A DNA stretch of 64,000 bases. Source: Promethearchaeota archaeon. GTDB taxonomy: Archaea > Asgardarchaeota > Lokiarchaeia > Sigyniarchaeales > SOKP01. The stretch is from the NCBI GenBank assembly GCA_048938005.1, contig JBHLMQ010000005.1, positions 50,489 to 114,488 of the forward strand. Reading direction: 5' to 3'. Under the pieces are notes generated by a model. That model had not been told where the DNA came from. It was given only the letters and a program-made list of their open reading frames with translations, and searched no databases. Shown in pieces: positions 29,508 through 33,224 of this stretch; position 1 is the first letter of the stretch; every line of letters starts with the position of its first letter. Made by a program: the position numbers and the translations under genes.

Positions 29508-31652
29508 ATGGTTAGGTTTTCTTCTAAAAAATTTATCTACTTTTCTATAATCGTTCTAACTCTTTTTCCCCCAGTCAATTTAAGTCTAAGCTACAGCTTC
29601 ATGAATTTAGTAGAGAATAATATTCCAGAAAATATTCGACTTTCTAATGGATATCCAGACGTCGATTTATCAATTCTACCAGATATCGATTATACTTCCC
29701 TAAATGGTCTCTGGTACAATTCTAAAATCGAAATGTTAATTATAACTCCAAATAGAACTGATTTTATTAATGCCGTAAAACCATTAGCCAATTGGAAAAA
29801 TGAGAAGGGAGTTAAAACTATAATATTAAGTAATTTCTCTTTATATGGGGGGGTTGGGGATGATGATGCAGAAAAAATTCGAAAGATGATAAAATCATAT
29901 TATGAAAAAGAAAATATCCAATGGGTTCTTTTAGCTGGTGATGCTCAAAATGATTTAATCCCCATTAGAGAAGTATATAATCCTGATGTACTTAGATGGG
30001 GAGGTGGCCTACATGAGACTATTCCAGGAGAATACGACAAACCTACAGATTTTTATTACGCAGATCTAACTGGCACTTGGGACAGTGATCAAGATGGAGA
30101 TTGGGGAGAAGGGCCACTACCATTAAATTTGCCAGATAATGAATATGGTTTAGATGAGATCTCATGGATCCCGGAAGTATATGTTGGTCGCTTTCCAGCA
30201 GATGATGCTAATGAACTTGAAATTATAGTGAATAAGACATTGAAATATGAGACTAATCCAGAGATAGGTGATTGGATGAATAGAATGCTTCTAGCAGGTG
30301 GTGTTTCAAGTTATAGTGTTTATGGTGATCCCTCAGGGGAATATGAGAGCGCATTAACAAATTATATACAAGAAAACTATGCAAGTTCAGTATTAAACTA
30401 TACTCATTTAGTAGAAGAAGGAGGAAATCTTACTCGTTCAAATCTCATTACTAATTTTAATGATGGATATTCTACAGTATTAATGGCAGGTCATGGAATT
30501 CCAACAGCTTATTATAGAAACCCAAGTGCACAAGGTTACACTAGATCTGATGCAGATAATAGCTTGAATACGTATAAACCTTCCTTAGTGTATATAGATG
30601 CTTGTTCAACATCGAGTTATGATGCTAATGATAATAATTTAGGGGAAACTTTAATAAAAAGACCTGATGGCGGTGCTATTGGAGTAATTGGGGGATTAAG
30701 AGTAACCTGGTATTTTGAAGATGACTTTAATCTTGAAAAATTGAATCGTGGTAATGCTAAATTGTTTTGGAAAGAATTTTTTGACCAAAAAAAGTTCCAG
30801 CAAGGTAGGGCGCTATATGATTCAAAAGTCGCATATATAACTAGTAATTATTATACGGAAGGGTTTGGTTCAACGGATTATGATTTCGAGCGCAAGAATT
30901 TATTAACATATTGTCTTTTAGGTGATCCTGAACTTGATATTTATACCAATAAGCCAAAATTAGCACAGAATCCTTTTACTGAAAATATTTATGAGGGTCA
31001 ATTAGTCTATATTACAATAAAAGATATCAATGGCAAAATTGTACCTTATGCGAGAGTTCATTTAAAAACATCTGATGGAAAGTATTATTCTGTTTATGCT
31101 GATGAAAATGGTCTAGTAAGCTTTCGTTTACCTGCTCAAGAAACCGAGGTGTATAATGTAATAATAACAGGTCACAATTTAATCCCATCCTATTTCAATT
31201 TTACTACACTTCCAGATAACTTTAAGCCTCAGCTCCTTGGAATAGAATGTATTCCTGAGAATCCGATAACCTCGAAAATGTTAACTTTTAATATTGAAGC
31301 TTATGACAATCGTTCAGGATTAGAGTCATCATACATAATTTTATCAAAAAATAATTTTACCGATGTATCTTATTTTGGTTTATCAAATAATTTTGAAGAT
31401 AATAGTGAAACATTTTCCATTGAGGCGGGGAGATTAACACCTGGAGATTACTCTTACTTCATTTTTATGAGAGATTATGCAAACAATACTAACATATATT
31501 ATGATTCAACCTTCCACTTTATTATACCCAAACCTATGATTGATTATATACTACTTGTTTCTATCGTTATGATTATCGCAATTTTAGGAATTTCTGTTTT
31601 CATTATATATAGGGAAATACAAAAACACTCGCATATTGTTAAAAATATGTGA
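29508..31652 (+). CDS. Peptidase C25 (gingipain family), membrane anchored
   Basis: WVLLAGD, TDFYYADL, EVYVGRFP, AGHG (His), DACS (Cys), LLGDP; N-terminal signal and C-terminal TM. Confidence 0.9.
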   Translation: MVRFSSKKFIYFSIIVLTLFPPVNLSLSYSFMNLVENNIPENIRLSNGYPDVDLSILPDIDYTSLNGLWYNSKIEMLIITPNRTDFINAVKPLANWKNEKGVKTIILSNFSLYGGVGDDDAEKIRKMIKSYYEKENIQWVLLAGDAQNDLIPIREVYNPDVLRWGGGLHETIPGEYDKPTDFYYADLTGTWDSDQDGDWGEGPLPLNLPDNEYGLDEISWIPEVYVGRFPADDANELEIIVNKTLKYETNPEIGDWMNRMLLAGGVSSYSVYGDPSGEYESALTNYIQENYASSVLNYTHLVEEGGNLTRSNLITNFNDGYSTVLMAGHGIPTAYYRNPSAQGYTRSDADNSLNTYKPSLVYIDACSTSSYDANDNNLGETLIKRPDGGAIGVIGGLRVTWYFEDDFNLEKLNRGNAKLFWKEFFDQKKFQQGRALYDSKVAYITSNYYTEGFGSTDYDFERKNLLTYCLLGDPELDIYTNKPKLAQNPFTENIYEGQLVYITIKDINGKIVPYARVHLKTSDGKYYSVYADENGLVSFRLPAQETEVYNVIITGHNLIPSYFNFTTLPDNFKPQLLGIECIPENPITSKMLTFNIEAYDNRSGLESSYIILSKNNFTDVSYFGLSNNFEDNSETFSIEAGRLTPGDYSYFIFMRDYANNTNIYYDSTFHFIIPKPMIDYILLVSIVMIIAILGISVFIIYREIQKHSHIVKNM

Positions 31653-31674: not shown

Positions 31675-32241
31675 TTACTTACCCTTTTTAGATTTATCTT
31701 TCTTCAGATCTAATAGATATAATATAGAACTAATAGTCCCAAATATGCCTTGGATAATTAAAGCTAGAGCGATTAAAAAGACTGCTAAAAGATCATTAAA
31801 AACAAATAAAAAGATAATGATAAAGGTTCCTGCTAACGTGAATTTTAAAAATGAAGAAAATTCGCTAAAGACAATCTTCCAAGTTTTAGTTTTATCTATT
31901 CTAGTTTTAATTTCTTTTTGATACTCATCTTCTCCAGCTTGCTTAATATACCAACTTCCCTCTATATTATTGGCAAACAGCAAAATACTCCACCATAAGA
32001 TGAAGAAACTAAAATAAAAATCCAATAAACCAAGGATAACGATTGGAATTTGCATTATAATCATTCCTTTCCACCCAATTTTTCTTGCTATTCGATTAGT
32101 CTCTAATTTTAATTCTTTAGTAACATATCTAGTACTGATCATATCAAGTAATCTACCAATAATCGTTATTAGAGCGTTTATTAAAAATTGATACCATTGT
32201 ACTTCTTTAAGAATTAATTGAAATATCATGTATTGAAGCAC
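31675..32241 (-). CDS. Hypothetical membrane protein
   Basis: Four to five hydrophobic segments; LDMIST...LETN. Confidence 0.75.
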   Translation of the reverse strand: MLQYMIFQLILKEVQWYQFLINALITIIGRLLDMISTRYVTKELKLETNRIARKIGWKGMIIMQIPIVILGLLDFYFSFFILWWSILLFANNIEGSWYIKQAGEDEYQKEIKTRIDKTKTWKIVFSEFSSFLKFTLAGTFIIIFLFVFNDLLAVFLIALALIIQGIFGTISSILYLLDLKKDKSKKGK

Positions 32242-32351
32242 CCCCGTAGCTATCCTTTTAAATTTAACGTTCTTTATGATAAAGTTTAATTATTAGCTTT
32301 TATTATTCCTATTTACTTATAAGTAGGTATTTTATTATAAAATAACCGAGC

Positions 32352-32359
32352 TTATATAA
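32352..32359 (+). promoter_or_regulatory. TATA box of the 5S rRNA precursor
   Basis: TTATATAA starts about 25 nt before the outer processing stem (32377). Confidence 0.6.
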
Positions 32360-32376: not shown

Positions 32377-32589
32377 TATAACCACATAAATTAGTAGCAA
32401 CTCGCTACTGCGCTGGAACCATCCGAACCCGGAAGTTAAACTTGTCAGCGTTATAGATAGTACTTCAGTTGCGAGTTACAACCCTTTCCGAGTTGTGAGC
32501 GAAATCTGTGGGAAACTATAAACTGTAAGTTCGCTTACGGTCATGGCTTACGAGGATAATACCCGGTCACGCTTGTTTATGTGGTTATA
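32377..32589 (+). repeat. Perfect 14-bp inverted repeat forming the precursor stem around the 5S gene
   Basis: TATAACCACATAAA (32377-32390) / TTTATGTGGTTATA (32576-32589); side hairpin AGTAGC/GCTACT at 32393-32409. Confidence 0.95.
32419..32568 (+). rRNA. rrf: 5S rRNA, circularly permuted, with putative 30-nt intron (32475-32504)
   Basis: CCATCCGAACCCGGAAGTTAA signature, loop E AGTA/GAAA; helices I-V can all be paired, but the conventional 5' part (GCTTACGGTCATGGC...TACCCGGTC, 32533-32568) lies downstream of the 3' part. Confidence 0.92.
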
Positions 32590-32681
32590 CGTGATTAACC
32601 ATTTTAAATTCATCTAAAATTAAGTTTTTATATTATTAATTATATCCTTTATTAATACTGAATAATTCTTTAATTGTAATC

Positions 32682-33224
32682 TTGCCAAAAAAGTGGAAAG
32701 TTATTCTAAAGACTATTGGAAGAAAGTGGTTTCTATTTCTTGTAGTCATTATTATCGTTGTAGCGATATATAATCCAATAGTGGCAATTTGGATGACGGG
32801 TATCACTTTAGTGTTGTTTCTTTTATCATATGTTCCAAGATTGCTTTTTAAAAATAAATTGCAAAAATTTATGAAGAACTTTTATAAAATAGAAGATGAG
32901 TTAATCGCTAGGAAATTTAAAAAGACTCTACAAAAAGTTCAAGATGAGATGTTTAAGTTATCACAAAACCAAGAAAAGAAAAAATGGTTAATTATATTTT
33001 TAAACAAACAATATGTTTTCTATCATCAAAAAACTATTGATGCTTATGAAAAGTATTATAATAAAGGTTATAGCGAAAAAGAAATTCTTGATAATTTGAA
33101 TGATTATAAAATTACCACTAGGGCTGAAATTAAAGCAATTAAAGAAAATCTAGTTAAACTTGACAGAATTAGTGAACGAGAAATCTCTGTTAAGGAACAC
33201 AGAGAAAAACAAAGGTTTTTGTAA
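32682..33224 (+). CDS. Hypothetical membrane-anchored protein
   Basis: Two N-terminal TM helices, basic helical C-terminus. Confidence 0.75.
   Translation: MPKKWKVILKTIGRKWFLFLVVIIIVVAIYNPIVAIWMTGITLVLFLLSYVPRLLFKNKLQKFMKNFYKIEDELIARKFKKTLQKVQDEMFKLSQNQEKKKWLIIFLNKQYVFYHQKTIDAYEKYYNKGYSEKEILDNLNDYKITTRAEIKAIKENLVKLDRISEREISVKEHREKQRFL

Follow-up and report, generated by a model that had tools for sequence, protein, structure and literature searches.

The stretch of DNA that was analysed here (the window) is 64,000 nucleotides (nt) in length and comes from the genome of one Promethearchaeota archaeon of the Lokiarchaeia (assembly GCA_048938005.1, contig JBHLMQ010000005.1, positions 50,489 to 114,488 of the forward strand). 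The genome is a 3.72-Mb draft in 101 contigs, 95.28% complete and with 7.23% contamination. The element under study lies at positions 32377–32589 of the plus strand and is the only occupant of the 440-base-pair (bp) gap between two open reading frames (ORFs), 31675–32241 on the minus strand and 32682–33224 on the plus strand. Across the 64-kb window, no Rfam family reached its gathering score and ARAGORN found no transfer RNA (tRNA) gene. The original prediction, made from the letters of the DNA, took the locus for a circularly permuted 5S ribosomal RNA (rRNA) gene, and profile scores, covariation and the conserved layout in relatives all bear this out. Very probably, 32377–32589 is the functional 5S rRNA gene of the organism, circularly permuted, interrupted by one intron and spliced through bulge-helix-bulge (BHB) motifs. 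The parts of the locus are the following; those of 5S segment 1 were placed by RF00001 alignment, nhmmer and covariation.

32340–32359, plus strand: putative promoter, read directly; block aaataaccgagc, then the TATA-like ttatataa at 32352–32359, about 20 nt 5′ of the leader stem.
32377–32390, plus strand: leader arm of the 14-bp processing stem, 100% complementary to 32576–32589.
32393–32409, plus strand: leader hairpin of 6 bp with loop AACUC, which separates the processing stem from the BHB and is present in the minimum free energy (MFE) fold.
32410–32419, plus strand: 5′ strand of the leader/trailer BHB, with outer GCG 32410–32412, central CUGG 32413–32416 and bulge AAC 32417–32419; predicted cut between 32418 and 32419.
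32419–32474, plus strand: 5S segment 1, with the 3′ part of loop C, III-3′ 32429–32432, loop B, II-3′ 32441–32449, V-5′ 32451–32456, loop E, IV-5′ 32463–32468 and the start of loop D.
32475–32504, plus strand: predicted BHB intron of 30 nt in loop D, placed by the gap in relatives and by BHB geometry.
32505–32568, plus strand: 5S segment 2, with the rest of loop D, IV-3′ 32506–32511, V-3′ 32516–32521, I-3′ 32522–32529, UUCG loop 32530–32533, I-5′ 32534–32541, loop A, II-5′ 32546–32554, loop B, III-5′ 32563–32566 and UC of loop C 32567–32568.
32563–32572, plus strand: 3′ strand of the leader/trailer BHB, with central CCGG 32563–32566 (which is also the III-5′ strand), bulge UCA 32567–32569 and outer CGC 32570–32572; predicted cut between 32568 and 32569.
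32576–32589, plus strand: trailer arm of the 14-bp processing stem, complementary to the leader arm.
32603–32606, plus strand: T-run, read directly, a possible archaeal termination signal.

Along the DNA, the 5S helices come in the order III-3′, II-3′, V, IV, V, I-3′, UUCG loop, I-5′, II-5′, III-5′. The 3′ part of the RNA is encoded upstream of the 5′ part, and the UUCG loop serves as the linker of the native ends. Helices I–V pair at the positions at which they were first proposed, as can be read in the sequence; helix IV contains one U·U, and the central helix CUGG/CCGG of the leader/trailer BHB contains one U·G pair. The other structural claims of the original prediction also hold: the 14-bp stem is perfect and lies downstream of the TATA-like element, and all pairs of the BHB-like ends (outer GCG/CGC, 4-bp central helix, bulges AAC and UCA) are listed in the constrained fold. 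Near-identical promoter-like blocks occur at equal distance in the upstream flanks of relatives, and 32340–32359 may act as the promoter. T-rich stretches are found 3′ of the trailer in relatives as well. One scan for sigma-70 promoters and intrinsic terminators, which is uninformative for an archaeon, gave a single terminator-like match, the minus strand of the leader hairpin.

The identity of the RNA was examined with two kinds of models. The loci were scored in genomic order with the standard 5S model RF00001, whereas rearranged order was scored with one nhmmer profile built from eight distinct conventional 5S genes of family f2, which belongs to the same order as the window's family f1. 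Standard models had been expected to under-score the locus, and RF00001 gave 30.1 bits against its gathering score of 38, through a forced global match with mispaired helix I and a 37-nt insertion. Such failure is expected for a permuted gene; the same shortfall was seen in the congeners, as none of the 24 congeneric genomes reached the RF00001 cut-off. When the whole genome was searched with RF00001 (3.72 Mb, E ≤ 10), the permuted locus was the sole match, and no separate conventional 5S gene, which would have spoken against the permuted one, was found elsewhere. In genomic order, nhmmer gave 21.8 bits over profile positions 36–113, plus one fragment of −3.2 bits for positions 4–19, which sits downstream of the former match. 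The score of the rearranged sequence was 35.8 bits, over positions 3–113; removal of 32475–32504 lifted it to 46.6 bits, over positions 3–115. The rearranged and spliced RNA folds as a canonical three-way junction (−32.2 kcal/mol).

Next to the scores, the alignment of relatives carries the identification. The core alignment comprised 43 loci from nine genera over their shared core region. RNAalifold recovered helices II, V, IV and I from it, in permuted order. Paired cells made up 97.3% of the alignment, compared to 82.7% after shuffling (0 of 500 shuffles reached the observed value) and 34–49% after sliding. Compensatory changes are present in 17 of the 26 pairs, which is what the original prediction had asked relatives of the same layout to display.

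We extracted 63 loci for comparison of the breakpoints; 23 of them, the window included, belong to type A and 39 to type B, whereas one (G026, family f3) has a third breakpoint. Type A genes break in loop C; type B genes break 2 nt past the 3′ strand of helix III. In both types, one 4-nt strand of the leader pairs with one strand of helix III, followed by a 3-nt bulge on each strand and by the adjoining outer helix. The third breakpoint (type C) is located on the 5′ side, in loop B; judged by eye, it agrees with the same geometry. EndA, the splicing endonuclease, cleaves BHB motifs past the second nucleotide of the bulge, a rule that fits the 37/38 position of tRNA introns. Cut by this rule, type A genes give the helix III/loop C sequence exactly as it is contiguous in type B, and type B genes give CCGGAAGUUAAAC, the contiguous stretch of type A (window). 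The cut sites proposed from the outset for the window (32418/32419 and 32568/32569) are independently confirmed here, as the contiguous DNA of type B spells the predicted junction exactly.

The position of the motif was further analyzed by one register test. A strict BHB was defined by four of four central pairs, at least three outer pairs and cut sites that follow the second nucleotide of each bulge; the canonical junction length was 22–23 nt, or 30 nt more in the presence of a loop C intron. G026 was left out, which gave 62 loci. Strict BHBs in the canonical-junction register were present in 58 of them; the other four have either three of four central pairs with 4–5 outer pairs, or four of four central pairs with two outer pairs. 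When the same loci were tested in every other class of junction length, just 82 of 2232 cases (3.7%) were strict. The bulge nucleotides behave likewise, the discarded positions being variable and the retained ones nearly fixed. Among the 39 type B rows, one of which (L106) has a tied chance BHB candidate, the third nucleotide of the 3′ bulge, which is discarded, is A in 24, G in 7, U in 7 and C in 1; the two nucleotides that are retained are AA in 36 rows.

The outer and central helices of the leader/trailer BHB are each 100% paired in all 23 type A loci. The processing stem is paired in 86.5% of the cells of relatives, some rows of which are misaligned, and 5 of its 14 pairs show compensatory changes. 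The leader hairpin is paired in 87.3% of cells over the 23 type A loci, with compensatory changes in two of its six pairs; one such hairpin (stem of GUAGC/GCUAC type) is shared by the type A and the type B genes of the family. In one locus (L107, G101), a 31-nt insert in loop C repeats a 17-nt 5S stretch, loop B to helix III, for a second time, perhaps as the trace of a duplication or recombination that moves breakpoints.

The element at 32475–32504 is of complete hBHBh′ form, with one 4-bp central helix, two 3-nt bulges and helices on both sides. The central helix pairs UUGC (32469–32472) with GCGA (32499–32502), the bulges are GAG (32473–32475) and AAU (32503–32505), and the inner helix is 7 bp in length (32476–32482 with 32492–32498). 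Helix IV serves as the outer helix, so that the motif spans 32463–32511. Seventeen of the 23 type A relatives lack the intron, and their alignment gap covers exactly the columns 32475–32504. In the intron-bearing rows, the central helix is paired in six of six, and its changes are one-sided; pairing of the inner helix amounts to 95.2%, with two compensatory pairs. The rearrangement given in the original prediction had left out 32475–32504 without naming it; the omitted element is one complete BHB intron. The order-wide search also returned 19 matches with cores of 131–133 nt instead of 100–104 nt, as counted from the table. Relatives also carry unrelated inserts of 29–31 nt with BHB geometry (by eye) elsewhere, namely at two positions of loop C, in the IV-5′ strand and in the I-3′ strand.

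Several individual genes illustrate the variety of such inserts. Nine type B genes (L023, L024, L066, L067, L069, L073, L077, L106 and L138) have inserts of about 30 nt in loop C, downstream of the core; their flanks are BHB-like, and predicted excision gives a canonical loop C, making these genes permuted and, at a third site, intron-bearing as well. Two genes, L069 (G066) and L103 (G064), have a 30-nt insert in the 3′ strand of helix I, just 5′ of the capping loop, and in both of them the predicted splicing restores capped helix I; the L069 insert contains one perfect 8-bp inner hairpin and one mismatch in the central helix. Inserts of about 30 nt are also located in the 5′ strand of helix IV in L101 (G128) and L102 (G106), with central helix CUGC/GCAG and bulges AAA and AAU. 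A further one of about 30 nt lies near this strand in L111 (G094), at a different position. The conventional-order 5S gene L123 (G266, family f9) is 152 nt in length and scores 32.4 bits, under the RF00001 cut-off; the region of its helix II 3′ strand contains about 30 inserted nt, probably a BHB intron in a non-permuted gene.

The genome encodes two proteins with matches to PF01974 (EndA; 104.7 and 73.8 bits) and one with a match to PF01139 (RtcB; 568 bits). The ORFs of the two EndA paralogues are 198 and 205 amino acids in length, contain N- and C-terminal domains each and are 30% identical. Inspected by eye, the first one (L113:1453–2049, minus strand) retains Tyr, His and Lys at the expected places, which we take to be the catalytic triad of EndA, whereas the second one (L114:1210–1827, plus strand, on G000:C56) is without the His at the aligned position. 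The sequences suggest that the second paralogue is a non-catalytic structural subunit and that EndA is a two-subunit enzyme in this organism. Relaxed specificity has been described for two-subunit EndA (PMC5829648). One 2026 preprint reports two EndA paralogues in 44 of 60 Asgard genomes, together with heavily interrupted tRNA genes, and makes no mention of rRNA (10.64898/2026.10.13.758758).

The precursor folds well, with a z score of −4.21; none of 200 shuffles folds equally well. In its MFE structure (−66.0 kcal/mol), the leader hairpin is present along with the long stem, and mature helix III forms between the two ends of the locus; the 14-bp processing stem is present in both the MFE and centroid folds. 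Several points weigh against splicing through BHB motifs. First, the MFE fold contains mature helix III instead of the BHB central helix, and therefore the BHB would be an alternative conformer. With both BHBs enforced, the energy is −63.2 kcal/mol; since the cost is just 2.8 kcal/mol, the substrate conformer should be accessible. Second, the constrained fold shows the leader/trailer motif opening into a multiloop on its inner side. The motif has no inner helix and is not of strict hBHBh′ form; it is therefore a relaxed (bulge-helix-loop) motif, which needs an endonuclease of relaxed specificity, and such specificity is ascribed to the EndA of this organism by analogy with the literature. Third, ranking of BHB-like candidates by helix length misses the true motif in the window, where an AT-rich candidate that by chance has an outer helix of 4 bp beats the real one of 3 bp; judged from junction lengths, chance candidates or the processing stem outrank the true motif in about 20 of the 63 loci. 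As this ranking is too permissive in AT-rich flanks, it was replaced by the register test. Last, cleavage, ligation and circularity are all predicted from DNA for events at the RNA level.

Based on these data, we propose the following pathway. One precursor of about 230 nt would be transcribed from the promoter near 32352. The 14-bp leader/trailer stem and the 3-bp outer helix would hold the 4-bp central helix with its two 3-nt bulges, the inner side being open, and the second, complete BHB would enclose 32475–32504 at the tip of helix IV. The two-paralogue EndA would cut all four bulges after the second nucleotide. RtcB would then perform two ligations: that of 32568 to 32419 would restore helix III together with loop C, and that of 32474 to 32505 would restore loop D. 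Because the encoded UUCG loop already closes helix I, the predicted product is covalently closed, a circular 5S rRNA of 120 nt.

The distribution of the layout was investigated in relatives and in the whole phylum. By DNA search, the locus was found in 23 of the 24 sampled congeners (matches below E = 1e-5). In the two single-contig genomes G006 and G022, the permuted layout is the sole RF00001 match. Family f2 of the same order has ordinary 5S genes, with RF00001 scores of 53–69 bits. We built one covariance model of the permuted core, R1, which gave full-length matches in 118 of the 131 genomes of family f1; in the other families of the order-wide search, R1 matched one of one genome in f3, none of four in f4 and, weakly, one of 14 in f2. 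Misassembly of tandem 5S copies had been named as a possible source of error, and recurrence of the layout in 118 of 131 family assemblies, single-contig ones included, argues that there is no misassembly. By eye, permuted genes were also recognized in f4, f5, f7, f8, f10, f11, f19, f22 and f23. With default filters, R1 matched 28 of 151 genomes of the phylum sample and missed the majority of the divergent lineages; with filters off, it gave a full-length match at 40 of 40 inspected loci.

A broader model, R2, matched 87 of the 151 genomes, which were drawn evenly from the phylum, and 19 of the 27 sampled families. No R2 match was obtained in 26 genomes of f9, 19 of f14, five of f18 and two of f2. 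Of these 151 genomes, 49 have a match that passes the RF00001 cut-off, and they belong to f2, f9, f12, f14, f18, f27 and f28 only; the overlap of the two models is a single genome, G249, which has a permuted gene on inspection. The view of the layout as a local oddity of the Lokiarchaeia is thus incorrect. Eighteen loci from other families were also analyzed: 14 have a BHB abutting an outer helix of 10–15 bp, and 11 of the 18 are strict. In L121, L122, L125 and L133 (f7) and L051 (f4), a leader-internal hairpin abuts the central helix and the outer helix is 0–5 bp in length, which looks like a different way to present the BHB.

Two further observations concern gene copies. In L073 (G072), a second, partial permuted 5S copy lies about 780 nt downstream of the first one and scores 44.7 bits with R1. 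In this second copy, the hairpin of helix I and the 3′ strand of the BHB are preserved, but the upstream half can no longer be recognised; the copy is a pseudogene or else carries a far larger insert. In f2, conventional 5S genes stand in tandem arrays, of three copies about 375 nt apart at G032:C1:1399892–1400758 and of two copies about 363 nt apart at G039:C66:1456–1934. Tandem duplication is proposed as the intermediate between collinear and permuted genes.

Whether the pathway ends with the circle was considered against the alternatives. We lean towards the circle as the mature form of 5S rRNA. It could instead be an intermediate only, which a further nuclease opens in or near the helix I loop (32530–32533) to give linear 5S rRNA; we regard this as unlikely. 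Re-linearisation is the established route for permuted tRNA genes, where RNase P and tRNase Z are described to remove the intervening sequence (PMC3978253). The linker of the 5S gene, however, is only 4 nt in length and mostly UUCG in the alignments. Helix I of other families is longer and has a short-loop cap (by eye), which resembles a permanent hairpin and not a removable spacer; in some relatives, the helix I intron would splice back to the same capped hairpin. We know of no enzyme that opens such a helix I loop. Moreover, circular RNAs are described as mature forms in the cases of signal recognition particle (SRP) RNA (PMC4731332) and 23S rRNA (PMC12918454).

It is highly improbable that EndA cuts without ligation, in which case the mature 5S rRNA would be a linear permuted molecule that begins and ends in loop C; were the intron cut left unjoined too, it would consist of two pieces. 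Some organelles do use fragmented or permuted rRNAs, and the mitochondrial permuted 5S rRNA is described to stay permuted in the final product (PMC4267664). Here, however, breaks of types A, B and C as well as several intron positions all restore one uninterrupted sequence. Since three break positions restore the same sequence, a rejoined RNA fits better than various tolerated nicked forms; an unligated intron cut would leave the 5S rRNA in two. The organism also encodes RtcB, the substrates of which are EndA products. EndA leaves 2′,3′-cyclic phosphate and 5′-OH ends, the ends that RtcB joins.

As an alternative to the intron, 32475–32504 might be an expansion of helix IV that is retained in a mature RNA of 150 nt. 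The segment is indeed a hairpin of 7 bp that extends helix IV, and large expansion segments are described for Asgard rRNAs (PMC7594248). Against it stand the exact BHB geometry of a 4-bp helix and two 3-nt bulges, boundaries equal to the gap in most type A relatives, the unrelated 29–31-nt sequences of the same geometry at other 5S positions, and the rise of the nhmmer score on removal; we give retention a very slim chance. Although the assembly is a draft with some contamination, we dismiss almost entirely that the locus is an assembly artefact or pseudogene with the working 5S gene in unassembled sequence, in view of the recurrence in 118 of 131 family genomes, G006 and G022 among them, of strong purifying and compensatory evolution, and of the 24 congeners without a conventional 5S gene above cut-off. 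Misassembled tandem 5S genes, a pseudogene and a separate conventional 5S gene were thus all rejected, based on recurrence in relatives, covariation and the lack of any other 5S match in the genome.

In the literature, we found no permuted or intron-bearing archaeal 5S gene, in agreement with the original prediction; subscription journals and supplements were outside this search, and an earlier description elsewhere is possible. The mechanism is of a known kind, a permuted gene restored through BHB motifs. The permuted SRP RNA of Thermoproteus tenax is described to be circularised by the tRNA-splicing machinery and to work as a circle (Plagens et al. 2015, PMC4731332). Like the 5S gene, it is a structural non-tRNA gene that was 'missing' from annotation through its swapped halves. 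The termini of the SRP RNA adjoin a functionally important loop, and EndA processing and ligation lead to a functional circle; the same is predicted here. Different from the SRP RNA, the 5S case concerns an rRNA, extends over most of a phylum instead of a few species, has at least three breakpoints and BHB introns, and is known from genes alone. Permuted tRNA genes of Cyanidioschyzon merolae and Thermofilum pendens also have the 3′ half upstream of the 5′ half and a leader/trailer BHB; they are described with a circular RNA product, introns in some cases, an upstream TATA-like element and a downstream T-stretch (PMC3978253, PMC3218864). Their spacer is cut off by RNase P and tRNase Z, whereas the native 5S ends are joined by a 4-nt hairpin loop, with no evident opening activity.

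The archaeal 16S and 23S rRNAs provide another parallel, as their processing also involves a long leader/trailer helix with a BHB, the EndA cut and RtcB circularisation; circular pre-rRNAs, ribosomal circular 23S rRNA and the permuted 23S rRNA of Pyrococcus are described (PMC12918454, PMC7758197, PMC10515664). Those genes, however, are presented as collinear with the junction outside the conserved core, whereas the predicted 5S junction rebuilds a conserved loop. One of these accounts states circularisation for 16S and 23S 'but not 5S rRNAs' (PMC12918454). In the permuted mitochondrial 5S rRNA of brown algae, helix I is likewise replaced by a closed hairpin and standard models miss the gene (Valach et al. 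2014, PMC4267664). In that account, however, the organellar RNA remains permuted and linear, with ends at the alpha/gamma domain junction and with neither BHB nor ligation. The same source calls archaeal 5S genes 'easily identified', a description that does not hold for the present gene. For Halobacterium and Sulfolobus, minor circular forms of 5S are described (PMC12558985), 5S-derived circles in archaea like the one predicted for the window. They come from collinear genes, have variable ends and were suggested to reflect degradation; they are not a gene-encoded sole route to 5S rRNA. For closed Heimdallarchaeum genomes, it is stated that 5S genes 'could not be predicted' (PMC8813620).

Compared to these systems, the 5S rRNA as target, the combination with introns, the moving breakpoints, the spread over most of the phylum and the predicted circular 5S rRNA are new. 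A wider proposal, which we hold to be evenly poised, is that most Asgard archaea (Promethearchaeota), including lineages with closed genomes that reportedly lack a predictable 5S gene, use covalently circular 5S rRNA, which the tRNA-splicing machinery would produce from permuted genes that often bear introns. The breakpoint would have moved repeatedly, with at least three positions in the helix II–III arm, and BHB introns of about 30 nt would occur at about six or more others. If true, 5S rRNA would be the second large natural system, beside tRNA, for the interconversion of BHB introns and gene permutation. The origin of permuted genes can be studied on the breakpoints and introns that coexist here, and BHB-mediated gene permutation is extended from tRNA and SRP RNA to one rRNA. 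5S rRNA is a universal ribosome component, yet the standard model fails across the window's lineage. In most sampled Asgard archaea, 5S genes are unannotated because the gene layout is permuted, and the permuted-order model is a working tool to search for them.

Elsewhere in the window, 29508–31652 on the plus strand is a 714-amino-acid ORF of the peptidase C25 (gingipain-like) family, the closest clusters of which are from Promethearchaeota.

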